Shown here: positions 732 through 57,968 of the stretch, piece after piece
Position numbering within the stretch: the first letter of the stretch is position 1
How the letters are laid out: every line of letters begins with the position of its first letter
NCBI GenBank assembly: GCA_046290225.1
Contig: JBKAGE010000077.1
Span: 96,001-160,000, forward strand
Reading direction: 5' to 3'
Origin: Bradymonadia bacterium
GTDB lineage: Bacteria; Myxococcota_A; Bradymonadia; UBA7976; UBA1532
Length of the DNA stretch: 64,000 bases
Position numbers and translations under genes: made by a program
Notes under the pieces: generated by a model
The model's input: the letters and a program-made list of their open reading frames with translations, nothing else
Databases searched by the model: none
Told to the model about the DNA's origin: nothing

Positions 732-2341
732 TTGCTCCGCAACGGGCCGGCCTTTGCCTTCCAGCTGTAGATCTTTCGTTTGCGCTCGAAGATCGGCGCG
801 TCGCCTGTGCCCGGAGCCGGGCTGACGTCCGAGATCCACCAGGCGGTGAAGGCCACCACGTCTTTACCGGGCGGGATCAAACCACGCTGATGCTCGCCGT
901 TGGCGAACCACACAGCCCACTTGGCGAACAAGTGCTTCTGGAACTGCAGGCGGAACATCAGGTTCTCTTCGTAATGGGTCCAGTGCCGGAGCCGGGCATC
1001 GGCCATCTGGTCGAGGTTGGGCACCTCACCTGTTCGGGGGTCGATGTGGGTGCCGTCGTCGAGCTCGGCGTCGACGATCATCCACCCATCTTTCACCGGC
1101 GCGTCAGGGGCGAAGAGCTGCCAGCCCTGCTGGAAGTCACCGTAGTGAGAGAAGGTGTTCGCCCACGTGGGCATCTTGTGATCGGGGAACGTCTTCCTCA
1201 GCGCCCGGTTTTGGTCCATGGCCCGATGGAAGCACGACAAGAAGGCCACGACCACGAAGACCTGGGCCGCCCAGAACCGCACCGGATGGTGCTTGGGGCT
1301 GTCGGGTACCTCAATGTCGCGTACATGGGTGTGGGCCTCGAGCCAGAGCCCTACGGATCGCATGGCCCCTTCAATGGCCAGCCAGGCACCCCCGAGCTTG
1401 CCGGCGAGCCAGCGGCCGAAACGGCCGAGCAGATCGCAGTCCTGCGAGGTGAGCAGCAACATGTACGACACCGACATCATGTACGAGAACAGGCTCAGAT
1501 CGGTCACCGCGGCGATGCTCAGGTGCAGCCCGATGAGGCTCACCACAAGCACTCGACGACACCAGACCACGGCGAAGGGGGACCAGATCAGAATCGGCGC
1601 CAGGCCCTCGACGATGAGCGTGCCCCAGCTCATGGCCCACAGCACGCTCATGGGGGCCCAGCCCCGGAACCAGAAGCCGAAGTCGGTGAGGATTCGATCC
1701 TGGTGCAGCAGCCAGTAGACCGCTTCGCCCTTCATCCAGGTGTCGCCGGTCTTGTGGATGGTGTTGAAGAAGTAGATGACCGCCAACTGCATCATGAAGC
1801 CGGTGATGGCGAGGCTGCGGATGGGGGCCCGCAGCGTCTCAAGGGGCACGCCCTTTCGGGCAGCGAGCCACGCATCGACTGACCAGCTGCGCCCCAGGGG
1901 CAGGGCGATCGTCCACAGCCACCAGAGGTTGTGCACGATGTCGGCGCCGATGTGCACCACCCAGTTCCGGTTGTGGATGCTGATCATGCAGATCATGCCC
2001 AGCACCTGAAACAGGCGGGTGCGCCAGCCGGCGACAAAGGCCATCAAGATGCCCGCGGTGGCGAGGAAGAAGACCTTCACCTCCCAGACCTCGTCGAGCA
2101 TGTAGAGCAGGCTCAGGCGCTGGGGGCCCTCCCCGGTCATGTAGAGGGCGTAGTGGTTCGGCAGCACACCTTCGTTGGTGTAGAGCATGGCGATATGGGG
2201 CCATCGCTGCCAGAGGTCGATGAGACACAGCAGCCCGAAGGCCACCCGGAACACCGCCAGAGATCGCGGATCCACCGTGATCCAGGCCCGCCAGTTGAAG
2301 ATGCTCTTCTTCACCACCCCGTTCTCCACGCTCGCGTTCAT
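728..2341 (-). CDS. HTTM-domain membrane protein
   Basis: DPRSLAVFRV, GWRTR, SIHNRN, LPLGRSWSVDA, YFFNTIHKTG, QGWQLFAP motifs; multiple TM segments. Confidence 0.8.
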   Translation of the reverse strand: MNASVENGVVKKSIFNWRAWITVDPRSLAVFRVAFGLLCLIDLWQRWPHIAMLYTNEGVLPNHYALYMTGEGPQRLSLLYMLDEVWEVKVFFLATAGILMAFVAGWRTRLFQVLGMICMISIHNRNWVVHIGADIVHNLWWLWTIALPLGRSWSVDAWLAARKGVPLETLRAPIRSLAITGFMMQLAVIYFFNTIHKTGDTWMKGEAVYWLLHQDRILTDFGFWFRGWAPMSVLWAMSWGTLIVEGLAPILIWSPFAVVWCRRVLVVSLIGLHLSIAAVTDLSLFSYMMSVSYMLLLTSQDCDLLGRFGRWLAGKLGGAWLAIEGAMRSVGLWLEAHTHVRDIEVPDSPKHHPVRFWAAQVFVVVAFLSCFHRAMDQNRALRKTFPDHKMPTWANTFSHYGDFQQGWQLFAPDAPVKDGWMIVDAELDDGTHIDPRTGEVPNLDQMADARLRHWTHYEENLMFRLQFQKHLFAKWAVWFANGEHQRGLIPPGKDVVAFTAWWISDVSPAPGTGDAPIFERKRKIYSWKAKAGPLRSK

Positions 2342-30221: not shown

Positions 30222-30623
30222 ATGCGCCATGTGTGCTGCGTGCTGCTGATTGCGTTGTTGATGTGGGGGTGTGATCCCGACAGTGACGCCGACGACGGGG
30301 GCGTGGCAGGTGCCGGTGGCGCTGGTGCAGCAGGTGGCGCCGCGGGGGGTGGCGGCTCGGCGGACGCCGATGTCTCCTCTGATGCCGAGGTACAGCCTGA
30401 CGCCATGGTCGACGCTGACGCCGGTTTGGAGCCAGACGCCGCACGTGTACCTGATGCCGAGGTGCAGCCTGATGCAGAGGGCCTGCCCGACGCGGGTCCT
30501 CCAGGTACACCGCGCCTCGTGCGCAGCCGCATGACCTGGAGTTCGGGCCCTGCAGGCCGTGGGACCCAGGTCATGCGCTTCGAAGGTGACGGCATTCACG
30601 TCAAAGGGAGGTTGGGCCGATGA
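30222..30623 (+). CDS. Putative lipoprotein
   Basis: Lipobox LMWGC; Gly/Ala linker and PDA repeats; overlaps the next gene. Confidence 0.6.
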   Translation: MRHVCCVLLIALLMWGCDPDSDADDGGVAGAGGAGAAGGAAGGGGSADADVSSDAEVQPDAMVDADAGLEPDAARVPDAEVQPDAEGLPDAGPPGTPRLVRSRMTWSSGPAGRGTQVMRFEGDGIHVKGRLGR

Positions 30624-32182
30624 GGCTGCACACCGTCGCGCGGCTCGCTGCGCTGCTGGCCACACTGTTGACCGCGCTGTCGCTGGGGGCCGGGTCTGTC
30701 TATGCCCAGCCCGTGCTCACCTTCGAAGGCACGCTCGCCGACGACGAGGGTGATCCCATCCCCGGCCCGGTGACGCTGAGCTTCGCCTTCTATGACACCG
30801 ACGAGGGGGGCGATCCCCTCTGGGAAGAGACCTGGCCCGACACCGAGGTGGTCGATGGCGAATTCGTTGTCGAGCTTGGGGCCATCACCCCCTTCCCCGA
30901 CGGCATCTTCGTGCAACCGTCCTTGTACCTCGGCCTCACCATCGACGACGGTGAGGAGTTGAGCCCCCGTCAGGCGGTGAACCCCGTACCCCGCGCCATC
31001 GTGGCCCGAGAAGCCCTCGACGTCACCGGCCGCGACATCCACCCCAACACGGTGAGCATCGGCGACACCACGGTCATCGACGAGAACGGCCAGTGGGTGG
31101 GTGATCCCACCGGGCTCGCTGGACCGCAGGGTGAGCAGGGCCCCGCCGGTGAGCAGGGCCCTCAGGGCCTGCAAGGCGAGCAAGGGCCTCAGGGCGATCA
31201 GGGCCCTCAAGGCATCCAAGGCCAGCAGGGCCTGCAAGGCGATCAAGGCCCACAGGGTGACCAGGGGCCTCAAGGCGATCAGGGCATTCAGGGCCCTCAA
31301 GGCATCCAGGGCCCCCAGGGACCTCAGGGACCTGCCGGCGCTTCTGGGATCGATGCCATGTACGGCAACGGCTCTGGTGGAGATCTGGTCATCGACGGTG
31401 ACGTGATTTGGGATGACAACCTCGCCCCCAACGGCGACGCCTTCGAGACCATCGTGATCCCCCAGGGCAGCCGCCTCATCGTCCCCTCGGGCATGGTCCT
31501 CCGCGCGCGGACCTCCATCGACATCTCCGGTGAGCTGGTGACCTTCTCCAACAACGGCCGCGCGGGCAGCCCCGCAGCCCAGGGGCAGTCCAGCCGGGCG
31601 GCACTGGGCAACACCGGTGGCAGCGCCGCAGGTGCCTGGAACGGTCTCTCCGTCACTCACCTTGCCGGAGGCGCCGGCGCAGGCAAGGGCGCCAGCGCCG
31701 GCGGTGACAGCGGCGGCGCCGTGGGCCTGCTCAGCGGTGGCAACATCACCATCAGCGGCAGCATCCAAGCCCCCGGCAACAACGGCCGCTCCACGGCGAA
31801 CAGCGCCGGCGGCGGCGGTGGCTCTGGTGGTCTCGTGTGGCTCGGGGCCCGAGGCTCCATCAGCGTGCCTGGCGGTATCACCGTCATCGGCGGCAACGGT
31901 GGCGCCGCACAGGGCGGCAACCGCAGCGGTGGTGGTGGCGGAGGCGGCGGCTACATCATCGCGCTCAGCGGCGAGGGCGCAGATCTCGGCGACAACATCA
32001 TCCTCACTGGCGGAAGCGGCGGTGCCAGTGTCGGCAATGGCCGCGCCCCTGGCGGTGGTGGTGGAGCCCTCGGTGGCGACGGTGGCAACGGTGGCACCTC
32101 CAACGCCGCAGCCGCAGCCGGCAACGACGGCATCGTGATCAACCTGCTCGACCCCGAGCCCGCCCTGCGACTGAAGCACTGA
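30620..32182 (+). CDS. Secreted collagen-like protein with Gly-rich C-terminal domain
   Basis: Signal peptide; N-domain ending ELSPRQ; (G-X-Q)n run; repeated GGGGG motifs. Confidence 0.8.
   Translation: MRLHTVARLAALLATLLTALSLGAGSVYAQPVLTFEGTLADDEGDPIPGPVTLSFAFYDTDEGGDPLWEETWPDTEVVDGEFVVELGAITPFPDGIFVQPSLYLGLTIDDGEELSPRQAVNPVPRAIVAREALDVTGRDIHPNTVSIGDTTVIDENGQWVGDPTGLAGPQGEQGPAGEQGPQGLQGEQGPQGDQGPQGIQGQQGLQGDQGPQGDQGPQGDQGIQGPQGIQGPQGPQGPAGASGIDAMYGNGSGGDLVIDGDVIWDDNLAPNGDAFETIVIPQGSRLIVPSGMVLRARTSIDISGELVTFSNNGRAGSPAAQGQSSRAALGNTGGSAAGAWNGLSVTHLAGGAGAGKGASAGGDSGGAVGLLSGGNITISGSIQAPGNNGRSTANSAGGGGGSGGLVWLGARGSISVPGGITVIGGNGGAAQGGNRSGGGGGGGGYIIALSGEGADLGDNIILTGGSGGASVGNGRAPGGGGGALGGDGGNGGTSNAAAAAGNDGIVINLLDPEPALRLKH
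31121..31340 (+). repeat. Collagen-type 9-bp tandem repeats (G-X-Q codons)
   Basis: GPQGEQGPAGEQGPQGLQ... roughly two dozen triplets. Confidence 0.9.
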
Positions 32183-32194
32183 GGGAGAGACCCC

Positions 32195-32719
32195 ATGTCA
32201 GAGCCCTTCATCGGCCAGATCGTCATGTTCGCTGGCAACTTCGCCCCTCGGGGCTGGGCCTTTTGTGACGGCCAGCTGCTGGCCATCAACTCCAACCAGG
32301 CCCTGTTTGCGATCCTGGGCACCACCTACGGCGGTGACGGGCGCACGACCTTCGGCCTGCCCGACTTACGGGGGCGCTTCCCCATGCACCCGGGCAACGG
32401 GCCGGGCCTCAGCCCCAGGCAACTCGGCGCCCGCAGTGGTCAGGAGACGGTCACACTCAACGTGACCCAAATCCCCAGCCACAACCACAACGCCACCCTC
32501 GAGGTCAGCAACACCGCCGCAGATGATCACCAACCTGCGGGGAACTACCTCGGCGCGGCTTCAGCCGACGTCTACACCCAGACCCGCAGCGGCAATGAAA
32601 GCCTCAACAGCGGTGCCACCACGAACACGGGCGGCAACCAGCCGCACGACAACATGCCCCCCTGGCAGACCGTGAACTTCATCATCGCCCTGCAGGGCGT
32701 CTTCCCCTCGCGCAGCTGA
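32195..32719 (+). CDS. Phage tail collar domain protein (MdpB-like)
   Basis: EPFIGQIVMFAGNFAPRGWAFCDGQLL...LGTTYGGDGRTTFGLPDLRGR...PHDNMPP. Confidence 0.92.
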   Translation: MSEPFIGQIVMFAGNFAPRGWAFCDGQLLAINSNQALFAILGTTYGGDGRTTFGLPDLRGRFPMHPGNGPGLSPRQLGARSGQETVTLNVTQIPSHNHNATLEVSNTAADDHQPAGNYLGAASADVYTQTRSGNESLNSGATTNTGGNQPHDNMPPWQTVNFIIALQGVFPSRS

Positions 32720-53822: not shown

Positions 53823-54104
53823 ATGACACAGCTCACGATCCACAAACTGGATGATGCCCTCGTACGCGCTCTCAGAGTCCGTGCGGCAGAGCGGGGCCAC
53901 TCCATAGAAGCTGAGGTTCGCGCCATCCTGCATGAAGTCCTCATGTCACGCCCCGACGAGCGCGCCTTAGTCGATCACATTCTCGCGATGCCTACTGATG
54001 CCACCGAGGAAGATCCATTCCCCAGGCTGAACGACGTATGCGACGTGATTCGCACCCGCACACGCATCGTGAATCCATTTGAATCAACAACTGAGCCGCA
54101 ATGA
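53823..54104 (+). CDS. FitA/StbC-like ribbon-helix-helix antitoxin fused to a PIN-toxin tail remnant
   Basis: MTQLTIHKLDDALVRALRVRAAERGHSIEAEVRAIL; tail RTRTRIVNPFE. Confidence 0.8.
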   Translation: MTQLTIHKLDDALVRALRVRAAERGHSIEAEVRAILHEVLMSRPDERALVDHILAMPTDATEEDPFPRLNDVCDVIRTRTRIVNPFESTTEPQ

Positions 54105-54718
54105 CAACACCACTGCGGACCCGCCGTGTCCATGCCCTGAACACCCTGAAATGGCTGGCGCCTTTCCTGTTCATCCTGATGGGTCACGGCAGCTGCGGTC
54201 CCCGAGGGCCAGAGGCGGCGTTGGCCACGTTGATGAGCGTGCCAGCGGTGTTGCTGGTGGGCTGTCTACTCCTCTTCAGCCTCGAAGCGCCCTGGGCACG
54301 CATCTCACCCCCCCGTACGGTGAAGACCTCCCCCTGGCGCAGATGGCAGTGGCTGCTCGGCGGCAGCCTGCTCTTCTCTCTGATCTGCCTGTTCGTGCCT
54401 CTGGGCCGGGAAGCCGTGGAGTGGTCGCTCTTCGCGGTGCCGGTCTTTGGTGGCTCCTGGCTGACCTTCATGCTGATCGCGTGGCGTTATCTACGCCACA
54501 TCGATCCCACAGGTGCACGGGCAGTGCGTGCGTCACCGGTCATCGCGCTGGGCATCACGCTGTGGCCGGTGATCCCGCTTTTTGCATCTTCGGGTGAAGC
54601 CCCCGGCGAGCTGCTGGCCTTCTGGTTCTACACCGGCGTGCTCGGCGCAGTGGGTGGGGTGATCTGGCTACTGCTCATGGCCGAAGCGTGGTGGCGCGCG
54701 CTGCACACGGACAGGTAG
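54101..54718 (+). CDS. Hypothetical membrane protein
   Basis: About six hydrophobic segments; ATGA overlap. Confidence 0.65.
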   Translation: MTTPLRTRRVHALNTLKWLAPFLFILMGHGSCGPRGPEAALATLMSVPAVLLVGCLLLFSLEAPWARISPPRTVKTSPWRRWQWLLGGSLLFSLICLFVPLGREAVEWSLFAVPVFGGSWLTFMLIAWRYLRHIDPTGARAVRASPVIALGITLWPVIPLFASSGEAPGELLAFWFYTGVLGAVGGVIWLLLMAEAWWRALHTDR

Positions 54719-54838: not shown

Positions 54839-56179
54839 GTGATGTCCCTGCTCTCGACCACTCTGCGCCCCATGGCCCGCTTCGGCCTCCCTGCGATCCT
54901 GGGCTTCGCGGGTCTCGCCGGCTGCGGCGCTCGCCCTGCACCTCAGCAGGAGACCCCCAAACAAGTGGTGGAGATGGACTCGATGGTCATCGAGTACCAG
55001 GGAGAGCAGGACGGCAAGTCGGTGACTGTGGCCTTCGACGATGCGGCGCTCTTCACCGAAGCCAAGGGCTACTTCGACGGTCAGAAGTTCGAAGAGGCCC
55101 AAGCAAGCTACGGCAAGCTGCTCAAGTATTTTCCCAAGAGCAGCTATGTGCACGCCGCGCTCTACAACCGGGGGCTGTGTTTCGAGCACTTGAAGCAGTA
55201 CGGCGAGGCTGCCAACCACTTCCGCCGGTACATTCAGCTGTCGAAGAGCCTCGAAGACCAGCGCGACGGTGAGTTCCGCTGGGGCTACAACCTGATCAAG
55301 ACCGAGGACTGGCCCACGGCCCTCGATCTCTACAATCGGCTGCTCAAAGATCCTCAGGGCCTCGGGGAGGCCGATCTCGCCGAGGCATATCTGCGCCGGG
55401 CCACGGCCCTCACGGCCATGGATCAGTTCGGCGAGTCAGAACGGGATCTCAAGAAGTCGATGCGCCTCATCGAGAAGGCCTACAGCGGGGTCACCGAAGG
55501 CAACCCGCTCTATGCCGAGGCCCACTTCCGCCGGGGCCAGATCTACGAGACGCTGTTCCGCAAAGTGCAGCTCAAGCTGCCCGCAGAGCAGATGAAGGTC
55601 GATCTACAGGACAAGGTGCGTTTCTTCAGGCAGTCGCAGTCGAGCTATCTCGACGCCCTCAACGTACGCGAGCCCTTCTGGGCCACGGCGGCAGGCTTCA
55701 AGCTCGGCGAGCTGTACGAGGTGTTCTACATGCACATCTTGCAGTCCGAGGTGCCCGACGAGTTCGATGACGAGACCCGACGCTTCTACTTCGTCGAGCT
55801 CAAGCGCAAGCTGCGCCCCCTCATGGAGCAGGCGCTGACGATCTACGAGAAGAACATCAGCATGAGCCAGCGGGTGGGCACGGAGAACGAGTGGGTGAGC
55901 GAGACCGACGCCCGCATGGCCCGGCTGCGCGATCTCCTGGAGGCGAGTCTCAAGGAAGAGAAGGCCATGGAAGAAGAGGAGCGGGCCTACGAAGAGGCCC
56001 AGAAAGCCCGGAAGTCGAAGAAGGGCAAGGGCAAGCCTCAGGCTTCCCGGGTCGACCTGAACGCCGCGCCGGTTGCGAGCCGTGGTTTGACGCCCCGAGA
56101 CATGCTGTCGCCGCGTCGGGCAGTGGCCCACCAACCTGCAGGCCGCCCGGGGAGTATCTCAAGTCGCGCAGGGGAGTAA
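54839..56179 (+). CDS. TPR-repeat lipoprotein
   Basis: Lipobox LAGC; ALYNRGLCFE and further TPR-like repeats. Confidence 0.8.
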   Translation: MMSLLSTTLRPMARFGLPAILGFAGLAGCGARPAPQQETPKQVVEMDSMVIEYQGEQDGKSVTVAFDDAALFTEAKGYFDGQKFEEAQASYGKLLKYFPKSSYVHAALYNRGLCFEHLKQYGEAANHFRRYIQLSKSLEDQRDGEFRWGYNLIKTEDWPTALDLYNRLLKDPQGLGEADLAEAYLRRATALTAMDQFGESERDLKKSMRLIEKAYSGVTEGNPLYAEAHFRRGQIYETLFRKVQLKLPAEQMKVDLQDKVRFFRQSQSSYLDALNVREPFWATAAGFKLGELYEVFYMHILQSEVPDEFDDETRRFYFVELKRKLRPLMEQALTIYEKNISMSQRVGTENEWVSETDARMARLRDLLEASLKEEKAMEEEERAYEEAQKARKSKKGKGKPQASRVDLNAAPVASRGLTPRDMLSPRRAVAHQPAGRPGSISSRAGE

Positions 56180-56518: not shown

Positions 56519-56589
56519 AGGCCGGGCGCTGGGCGCAGGTAGGACTCCAAATCCAACCATGGAGGGTTCGATCCCCTCCCGGCCTGCCA
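56519..56589 (+). tRNA. tRNA-Trp (CCA), non-canonical with shortened D-arm, 71 nt
   Basis: Acceptor AGGCCGG/CCGGCCT, discriminator G, encoded CCA; anticodon loop CTCCAAA; T-arm GAGGG-TTCGATC-CCCTC. Confidence 0.88.
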
Positions 56590-56745
56590 TCACTCATATT
56601 GATACATGCGCGCGACCCAAACATGTATTAAACGCAACACTTGCACCACACCACAAGTGTATCAAAACTGAGTACCCTCCACAGGGTTGACGTACGTACA
56701 CATCCGGACCCAACCTGCACCTCCCACGGATGCAGTGAGAGGCAC

Positions 56746-57362: not shown

Positions 57363-57968
57363 GTGAGGTGGCTCGACAACATCCGCCACGCCAAGCGACT
57401 GTATCGCGCTGATCCCGGGGCGCATCTGGGCGACGTCGCTGTGCTCAAGTGCGACGCTTTTGGCGTAGACGTTCGGCCACCTCTCCGAGAAGCGCTGGCC
57501 CCTGTGCGCGGGTGGATCCCAGAGGTCGATTTGGATCGACTCGCCGAGCTGCCGCCGAACACGTTTGGCCACGCTCTGGCCCGCTTCATGCGCCAGAACC
57601 AGCTGCACCCCTTCGTCATCACCGACGAGATCCCTGATGACATGCGCCGGCGAAATGCCTTTGGCATCCGCTACGCCACGACCCACGACATGTTCCACGT
57701 GTTGCTGGACTTCGACACCACCTGGGTGGGCGAGATGGGCGTGCTGGCCTTCGCGGTGGGTCAACGCTACACACGCTGGCAGGCCCTCGGCGCTGCCCTC
57801 GCGTGGCTCATCTACTCGGTGCGCTCGGGCTTCAAGCTGCGAGCGCTCTGGCGCGCATGGCGTCGCGGACGCGCTGCGGGCCGTCGAGCCCCCTTCTTGT
57901 TGGGCCTGCGTCTGGAAGAGCGGTTCGAGAGCGACTTGAACGCTCTACGTCGAGAGCTGAGGCTTTGA
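57363..57968 (+). CDS. Coq4-family protein
   Basis: LDRLAELPPNTFG, THDMFHVL...GE (HDxxH...E). Confidence 0.8.
   Translation: MRWLDNIRHAKRLYRADPGAHLGDVAVLKCDAFGVDVRPPLREALAPVRGWIPEVDLDRLAELPPNTFGHALARFMRQNQLHPFVITDEIPDDMRRRNAFGIRYATTHDMFHVLLDFDTTWVGEMGVLAFAVGQRYTRWQALGAALAWLIYSVRSGFKLRALWRAWRRGRAAGRRAPFLLGLRLEERFESDLNALRRELRL

Follow-up and report, generated by a model that had tools for sequence, protein, structure and literature searches.

L-arrays are long arrays of transfer RNA (tRNA) genes that spread horizontally and add supernumerary tRNAs to the genomes that receive them (Santamaria-Gomez et al. 2021, PMC8421152). According to that account, an HNH homing endonuclease gene is conserved upstream of the arrays, rtcB is a co-regulated neighbour, the arrays are mostly silent, and their tRNAs have been suggested to act as sponges for toxin RNases; in the array of Anabaena, 23 of the 26 tRNAs are charged in vivo and translational stress induces the array (PMC8421152). 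Among the isotypes found in arrays, tRNA-Trp is one of the rarest, at 2% (Tran et al. 2016, PMC4758250). The words Trp, D-arm, and cloverleaf have 0 occurrences in PMC8421152, and no tRNA-Trp structure is described in the accessible text of either paper. A second point of comparison is provided by tRNAs with a compact core. In tRNAPyl the anticodon stem measures 6 bp, the variable arm 3 nt, and the D loop 4-5 nt, and the linker consists of one nucleotide or, in M. alvus, of none; the mammalian mitochondrial (mt) tRNASer(UCN) resembles tRNAPyl in these traits and retains G18 and G19 along with the sequence of the T loop. Both are L-shaped and both work in translation (PMC7609411). The present study concerns a stretch of 64,000 nt from a Bradymonadia bacterium (assembly GCA_046290225.1, contig JBKAGE010000077.1, positions 96,001 to 160,000 of the forward strand), here called the window, and a 71-nt tRNA-Trp gene that lies within it. 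The analysis indicates that this is a real, intact tRNA-Trp gene with an unusually small D-arm, that its compact core has been rebuilt and not decayed, and that the family to which it belongs is conserved and travels with tRNA arrays that spread horizontally and with the tRNA clusters of phages.

ARAGORN calls a tRNA-Trp(cca) at 56519-56589 (+) of the window, and the parts of the molecule are listed in Table 1. An earlier, sequence-only reading of this DNA had described a perfect acceptor stem and T arm, an encoded CCA, a shortened 5′ half, and the lack of U8, and the sequence agrees with it on each of these points. Specifically, all seven acceptor pairs are Watson-Crick, the distance from the acceptor stem to the 5-bp anticodon-stem core is only 14 nt (GCGCTGGGCGCAGG), as against the usual 19 or so, and position 8 is a G. 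The window copy thus departs from the canonical cloverleaf at U8, at A14, and in the two-nucleotide 8/9 linker. The same reading had noted that the anticodon stem contains an A-A mismatch and that it could be lengthened by two additional G-C pairs; both are present. In canonical tRNAs the GG of the D loop contacts the T loop, and both of these elbow elements, the D-loop GG and a T loop of the UUCRA type, are found in the window copy. The identity set of bacterial (E. coli) TrpRS consists of the anticodon CCA, G73, A1-U72, G2-C71, and G3-C70, and the full set is likewise found. The minimum-free-energy fold is the compact cloverleaf; since its z-score of -0.96 is unexceptional for the base composition, the fold energy proves nothing alone.

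The sequence-only reading had associated a lack of homologs sharing the short D-arm with a pseudo-tRNA. Instead, 28 other loci share the compact architecture, 16 of them on genome contigs, 11 on viral contigs, and 1 on a metagenome contig. They were sought with a pattern scan over one genome per species from 185,579 species, in which the AGG...CCTG ends, the CTCCAAA loop, the GGTTCGA..CC T loop, and the spacing were fixed, as was a G/C-only 4+4 D stem enclosing a loop of 3-5 nt. The 16 genome contigs belong to metagenome-assembled genomes (MAGs) labelled Myxococcota (several families), Planctomycetota, Actinomycetes/Acidimicrobiaceae, and Proteobacteria, and the same pattern recovered the 11 viral contigs from IMG/VR, with G+C contents from 0.37 to 0.64. 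A separate pattern derived from the D and anticodon arms of the window copy gave one metagenome match only. The nearest relatives, at 81-82% identity, belong to arrays in MAGs that carry the labels delta proteobacterium and Myxococcaceae. When the tRNA region was compared by BLAST with named phages, only the 3′ half matched, either canonical 76-77 nt tRNA-Trp genes (XacN1, RcXuper) or unannotated sites in Bacillus phages. The same comparison with plasmids gave no match, and two viral family members used as BLAST queries matched no named phage.

A covariance model was built from 17 family members, the window copy among the training sequences, and gives that copy 89.2 bits (E = 1.8e-17), near the top of the family range. 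Among the genome-contig homologs, 15 of 16 score 75-89 bits and the remaining one 51.0. Pairing was evaluated on these 17 sequences and on a set of 22 distinct sequences, from which the length variants L056, L091, and L099 and the exact duplicates L094, L095, and L097 were left out. Standard pairs occupy 95.7% of the cells in the 22-sequence set and 94.4% in the 17-sequence set, as against 73.4% and 76.8%, respectively, when partners are shuffled, and 36-48% and 37-51% when they are slid by 1-3 columns. In total, 17 of the 23 pairs change on both sides in the larger set and 15 of 23 in the smaller, and compensatory changes occur in all four helices: covariation backs the four-helix cloverleaf. 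In the acceptor stem, pairs 4-7 change on both sides; in the anticodon stem all seven pairs do so, and its two extra pairs are kept in 21 of 22 and 22 of 22 sequences; the T helix is paired in 100% of the cells of the 22 sequences, with both-side changes in three of its five pairs. Since the window copy scores highly on the family model and the helices covary, the compact tRNA-Trp is more than a chance arrangement.

The D region is the part of the molecule in which the sequence-only reading had left two folds standing, and covariation across the family separates them. The helix GCGC-UGG-GCGC is paired in 100% of the cells of the 22 sequences (98.5% on the 17), three of its four pairs change on both sides, and the family contains the forms GCGC/GCGC, GGGC/GCCC, GGCC/GGCC, and CCGC/GCGG. 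The GG of its loop is invariant in 22 of 22 sequences, although the search pattern left the content of the loop free. The alternative CUG-GGCG-CAG, which is the helix drawn by ARAGORN, is weaker, at 82.4% paired with both-side changes in one of its three pairs. Similarly, an 8/4- or 9/4-type fold, suggested by alignment to the tRNA-Sec model, is ruled out by covariation of the T stem: in 10 of the 22 sequences, both partners of pair 44:60 are changed. The earlier proposal that the gene has been selectively maintained and not decayed is therefore supported at the level of the family, given the 28 other loci and the compensatory changes in four helices.

Among the relatives, the compact gene has two or more tRNA genes as neighbours within 3 kb in 15 of the 16 genome loci, and at least eight in 12 of them, with a maximum of 31; the metagenome match sits in an array of 18 tRNAs, and three viral contigs carry 8, 10, and 13 ARAGORN tRNA genes in the locus that was fetched, a fourth carrying 4. 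Genes for an HNH endonuclease are neighbours in 7 of the 16 genome loci, RtcB in 4, and RtcA in 2. A canonical tRNA-Trp of 74-76 nt is encoded elsewhere in at least 9 of the 16 array-bearing genomes; in the other seven the next-best model match is another tRNA, which is uninformative as these MAGs are incomplete. Nor is the compact design confined to tryptophan. An anticodon-free structural scan of the array loci revealed similar designs with Cys, Arg, Ala, Met, Gly, and His anticodons (Table 1), sharing 0-1 linker nucleotides, a GG-containing D loop of 3-5 nt, an anticodon stem of 6-7 bp, and a variable loop of 2-4 nt.

Several of these loci contain further elements of interest. In L053 (2377-3068) the compact tRNA-Trp is the sole tRNA of the locus and adjoins a same-strand gene for an HNH endonuclease, an arrangement that looks like a minimal HNH-plus-tRNA module. 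The 18-tRNA array of the metagenome contig contains, at L104:2298-2430 (-), a match to the Y-RNA-like YrlA (70.1 bits against a gathering threshold of 69), which links the arrays to an RNA-repair theme involving Ro and RtcB. Within the array of L060, at 1250-1322 (-), lies a 73-nt tRNA with a TCA anticodon that ARAGORN labels SeC; because it is of normal length, it may be an opal suppressor and not a tRNA-Sec. Finally, an Acido-Lenti-1 RNA match (59.2 bits) is found at L050:957-1002 (-), near the array of a MAG labelled Planctomycetota.

The assembly of the home genome comprises 8.58 Mb in 83 contigs with about 65% G+C, and ARAGORN finds 96 tRNA genes, among them a canonical 74-nt tRNA-Trp at C78:276670-276743, clustered with Thr, Gly, Tyr, and Thr genes. 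The compact gene is thus supernumerary. A dedicated second TrpRS was considered and ruled out, as the genome has a single trpS gene (C42:6480-7424). An anticodon-free structural scan of the 8.58-Mb genome returned only the compact Trp gene and a spurious register on a canonical Glu tRNA. The compact gene is also confined to this genome among the relatives that were compared. Within a same-family set of 27 genomes, none of the same genus, a model built from the window sequence alone (self score 106.7 bits) found only canonical tRNAs of 75-77 nt, the best at 46.3 bits, and no compact Trp gene. BLAST against 60 relatives likewise found no compact gene: 13 of the 14 other matching loci overlap canonical-length tRNA-Trp genes or a fragment cut at the locus end, and the fourteenth, L006, matches in the 5′ part only and has no tRNA call. 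In 150 further genomes sampled from the phylum, with 34 candidates scored in each, the family model likewise had no match at E <= 1e-8. Nine orthologous loci of the upstream tetratricopeptide-repeat (TPR) gene were fetched, and none has a tRNA alongside. The distribution of the compact tRNA-Trp is sporadic, as it is for L-array tRNAs. Two DNA metagenome runs contained only a small share of the sequence words that were searched.

Taken together, these results suggest that the window copy is probably a functional accessory elongator tRNA-Trp with a compact core, of array or phage lineage, that was acquired horizontally and now stands alone. Its core lacks linker nucleotides 8 and 9, and the D-arm is reduced to a 4-bp stem with a 3-nt loop that keeps the GG, with the anticodon stem lengthened to 6-7 bp and the variable loop reduced to 3 nt. 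In the mechanism that we propose, the compact tRNA would be transcribed and then trimmed, would be charged by the single TrpRS of the genome through G73, A1-U72, G2-C71, G3-C70, and the CCA anticodon, and would, once charged, read UGG on the ribosome. Its value may lie in a backup or extra supply, for example during translational stress or an attack on tRNAs. Tryptophan has one codon only, and for this reason the benefit would be one of supply and robustness and not of codon compensation. The copy in the window would have reached its present site by horizontal transfer; it now lies apart from arrays.

Several observations weigh against this reading. The compact gene is the sole tRNA that ARAGORN finds in the 64-kb window, and no HNH or RtcB gene lies near it. 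The anticodon stem contains the A:A mismatch, at 56541:56555, and pair 7:66, which is open in 9 of 22 relatives, is closed in the window copy, where zero linker nucleotides may make this sterically awkward. The search across the phylum covered only 34 candidates per genome. At gathering thresholds Rfam has no match in the whole window, RF00005 (tRNA) included, and at loose thresholds the best tRNA-clan match of the window copy is tRNA-Sec RF01852, at 30.5 bits against a gathering threshold of 47. Moreover, the conservation of the positions that the scan pattern fixed (acceptor end nucleotides, anticodon loop, T loop, and G/C-only D stem) is no evidence, because the search forced it. Hence, of the earlier claim that the TrpRS determinants are retained, the part that stands is their presence in the window copy; across the family their conservation is imposed by the pattern, and one relative found without this constraint has C2:G71. 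The published evidence on L-array function also does not extend to the Trp type, since the one L-array examined by experiment, on Anabaena pCC7120delta, with 24 ARAGORN tRNAs, has no tRNA-Trp; its best match to the family model, at 31.1 bits, is an Arg tRNA. A rival reading is that of a silent relic, a pseudo-tRNA left by a once-acquired array or phage that is intact since the transfer was recent and that is neither expressed nor used. The solitary position, the absence from every relative searched, and the mismatch agree with such an origin, as does a promoter scan that found only weak sigma-70-like sites, some 190-290 nt upstream, and the report that L-arrays are for the most part silent (PMC8421152). 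However, the copy retains 22 of the 23 pairs and all bases that are invariant in the family, the model score is near the family top, the mismatched position is a non-standard pair in 4 of 22 members and is therefore tolerated, and at lowered ARAGORN thresholds no decayed tRNA remnants flank the gene. A decayed array was likewise set aside, as those thresholds gave two weak calls, at about 54.07-54.15 and 59.74-59.82 kb, that were taken as spurious. We regard a relic as unlikely.

A role outside translation, as a decoy or sponge for toxins or nucleases, as a sensor linked to RNA repair, or as a non-ribosomal Trp donor, is rather improbable. It would fit the RtcB and RtcA RNA-repair genes that adjoin relatives, the YrlA match in one array, and the FitA-like antitoxin gene 2.4 kb upstream of the window copy, and it draws on the published suggestion that array tRNAs may be toxin-RNase sponges (PMC8421152) and on reports that phage tRNAs counter tRNA-targeting defences (PMC13096335, PMC10264068, PMC11555353). 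Yet the family keeps the full design of a tRNA, with its 7-nt anticodon loop, G73, T loop, and acceptor stem; in the window no gene for a cyclodipeptide synthase, PEARL, Fem-type, or L/F-transferase-like protein adjoins the tRNA; and the partner of the FitA-like gene matches no family. Of the roles put forward in the sequence-only reading, namely resistance to nucleases, a smaller need for modification, and non-ribosomal donation of Trp, the last gains no support from a nearby tRNA-dependent enzyme. That the gene arose at the border of an integrated mobile element, by rebuilding or duplication of a tRNA gene, is highly improbable. Although the downstream genes are variable, the Coq4-like gene being matched in few family genomes (Table 1), and the 100 nt 3′ of the tRNA are AT-rich for this genome, both halves of the tRNA match the compact family, and no integrase or mobility gene was found among the neighbours scanned. 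An attachment site was also sought and rejected, as the tRNA's 3′ end is not repeated in the 64-kb window at up to 3 mismatches. A bolder version of the preferred reading, that of an accessory tRNA-Trp used in translation, would make core compaction a systematic adaptation of array and phage tRNAs. Such tRNAs would be “stealth” molecules that evade tRNA-targeting toxins, defence nucleases, and host modification or regulation, their altered D-arm and elbow letting them escape while they remain usable by the synthetase, EF-Tu, and the ribosome; the copy in the window would then be a nuclease-proof backup, domesticated by a host that is probably of the Myxococcota. This extension is doubtful.

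The chromosomal surroundings of the window copy are summarized in Table 1. Upstream lie glycoside hydrolase genes, a FitA-like antitoxin gene with an unassigned partner, and the TPR gene, which is matched in 26 of the 27 same-family genomes (36-57% identity for the best match) and is a conserved core gene marking the chromosomal insertion point. Downstream, the genes encode a pentapeptide-repeat protein, a protein of the Coq4 type, and a LysR regulator. By automatic cluster taxa, which give a lead and not a classification, one neighbouring protein has mainly Myxococcota relatives. Genes for an integrase, HNH endonuclease, RtcB, or tRNA-dependent enzyme are absent among the scanned neighbours, and in the genome as a whole HNH_5 matches occur on C36 and C34 only and RtcB on C51, C8, and C54. 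The AT-rich segment directly 3′ of the tRNA (56590-56680) contains two 7-bp inverted repeats, ATACATG..CATGTAT and ACACTTG..CAAGTGT, which could be operator or terminator sites of the tRNA or of the downstream pentapeptide-repeat gene. At 53823-54718 (+) the FitA-like gene, of the ribbon-helix-helix type, overlaps the start of a 205-aa open reading frame that matches no Pfam or NCBIfam family and is a candidate new toxin partner. A second Coq4-family gene is present on the Anabaena L-array plasmid (NC_003273.1:32364-33017); with only 26% identity to the gene in the window, the shared neighbour is probably a coincidence. Farther upstream, at 30590-32719 (+), a collagen-repeat protein gene is followed by one for a phage tail collar domain protein, in a region that is otherwise chromosomal.

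Elsewhere in the home genome there are about 40 extra tRNA genes of canonical length in several clusters, grouped by amino acid: Val/Arg/Lys/Ile; long-arm Leu/Ser/Tyr; Gln/Glu/Asp/Phe; Asn/His; and Thr/Gly/Ala. Together with the Trp gene in the window and scattered second genes for Cys (C42) and Pro (C34), they nearly duplicate the housekeeping set, with no extra Met seen, and the contigs that carry these clusters have no HNH or RtcB genes. In the Leu/Ser/Tyr cluster, at C37:77832-77917 (-), a tRNA with a long variable arm closely resembles the adjoining tRNA-Tyr and has, according to ARAGORN, a TGT (Thr) anticodon. At C14:27995-28067 (-), a 73-nt tRNA with a CTA anticodon is labelled Pyl by ARAGORN and is a possible amber suppressor.

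Table 1. Parts of the compact tRNA-Trp gene and coordinates of associated features (window positions unless a locus or contig is given).
Feature	Position	Strand	Remarks
Compact tRNA-Trp(CCA) gene	56519-56589	+	71 nt with encoded CCA; ARAGORN and family covariance model
Acceptor stem, 5′ strand AGGCCGG	56519-56525	+	partner strand 56579-56585
D hairpin GCGC-UGG-GCGC	56526-56536	+	4-bp stem, 3-nt loop; abuts acceptor stem with 0 linker nt (U8, N9 absent)
Single A joining D stem to anticodon stem	56537	+	sequence and alignment
Anticodon arm, 7-bp stem GGUAGGA/UCCAACC, loop CUCCAAA	56538-56558	+	anticodon CCA at 56547-56549
Variable loop AUG	56559-56561	+	3 nt; 2 to 3 nt among aligned relatives
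T arm GAGGG-UUCGAUC-CCCUC	56562-56578	+	sequence
Acceptor stem, 3′ strand CCGGCCU	56579-56585	+	followed by discriminator G (56586) and encoded CCA (56587-56589)
TPR-repeat gene	54839-56179	+	upstream context; Pfam TPR families
Coq4-family gene	57363-57968	+	adjoins tRNA; matches in 2 of 27 same-family genomes only
Compact-design non-Trp array tRNAs	L048:3360-3427, L060:2409-2476, L051:3611-3754, L055:4024-4638, L050:3181-3249, others		structural scan
Extra tRNA clusters	C20:227-1226, C24:180-334, C37:77269-79067, C42:92366-93501, C44:41225-41498, C79:72099-73132		home genome

To our knowledge, a linker-free design with a tiny D loop is known mainly from tRNAPyl and from mitochondria. If the compact tRNA-Trp is charged and used, then the translation machinery of bacteria and phages accepts a tRNA with zero nucleotides in the 8/9 linker and a 3-nt D loop, and the molecule would offer a natural compact scaffold for tRNA engineering. 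The finding also ties a structural peculiarity to horizontally spread tRNA arrays and phage tRNA clusters, the role of which, as a backup under stress or as a counter to defence, is debated. The compact Trp genes in L053 and L104, like the window copy, lack an Rfam match; the tRNA model of Rfam thus overlooked 3 of the 3 compact Trp genes on which it was tried, and ARAGORN overlooked 5 of 16. For this reason tRNA-Trp may be under-counted in arrays, and we infer that the 2% reported in PMC4758250 is linked to this failure of detection. No description of a compact bacterial or phage tRNA-Trp was found in the open full-text literature searched; the form appears to be new, L-arrays and the compact-core type of tRNA being already known.

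Compared with the canonical tRNA-Trp of the same genome, the compact gene has in common A1-U72, G2-C71, G3-C70, G73, the CUCCAAA loop, and the UUCGA T loop. It is, however, 5 nt shorter in its 5′ half, so that its anticodon falls at position 29 and not 34, and differs in its lack of U8 and A14, its 3-nt D loop, its extended anticodon stem, and its escape from RF00005. A short D loop and a long anticodon stem are also common to tRNA-Sec and allo-tRNA-like forms; in contrast to tRNA-Sec, the compact tRNA-Trp has neither a long variable arm nor a UCA anticodon, and its acceptor/T arrangement is 7/5, not 8/5 or 9/4. With respect to L-arrays, the homologs are alike in lying in dense same-strand arrays with HNH and RtcB genes nearby, in being supernumerary, and in occurring in MAGs that carry the labels of several phyla and on viral contigs, whereas the window copy is unlike them in being solitary, with no array or HNH gene. 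A close structural parallel is with tRNAPyl, especially that of M. alvus, and mt-tRNASer(UCN): shared are a linker of 0-1 nt, a very small D loop (no more than 5 nt), an anticodon stem that reaches or exceeds 6 bp, and a variable loop of 3 nt, and with mt-tRNASer(UCN) the compact tRNA-Trp also has in common the D-loop GG and the sequence of the T loop. It differs from both in its CCA anticodon, where theirs are CUA or Ser, in its Trp-type acceptor end, in a D loop of 3 and not 4-5 nt, in a 7-bp anticodon stem, in being borne by bacteria and phages, and in its association with an ordinary trpS. Judged by its sequence, then, the compact tRNA-Trp is not a member of the tRNAPyl and mt-tRNASer(UCN) type, but it uses the same design.

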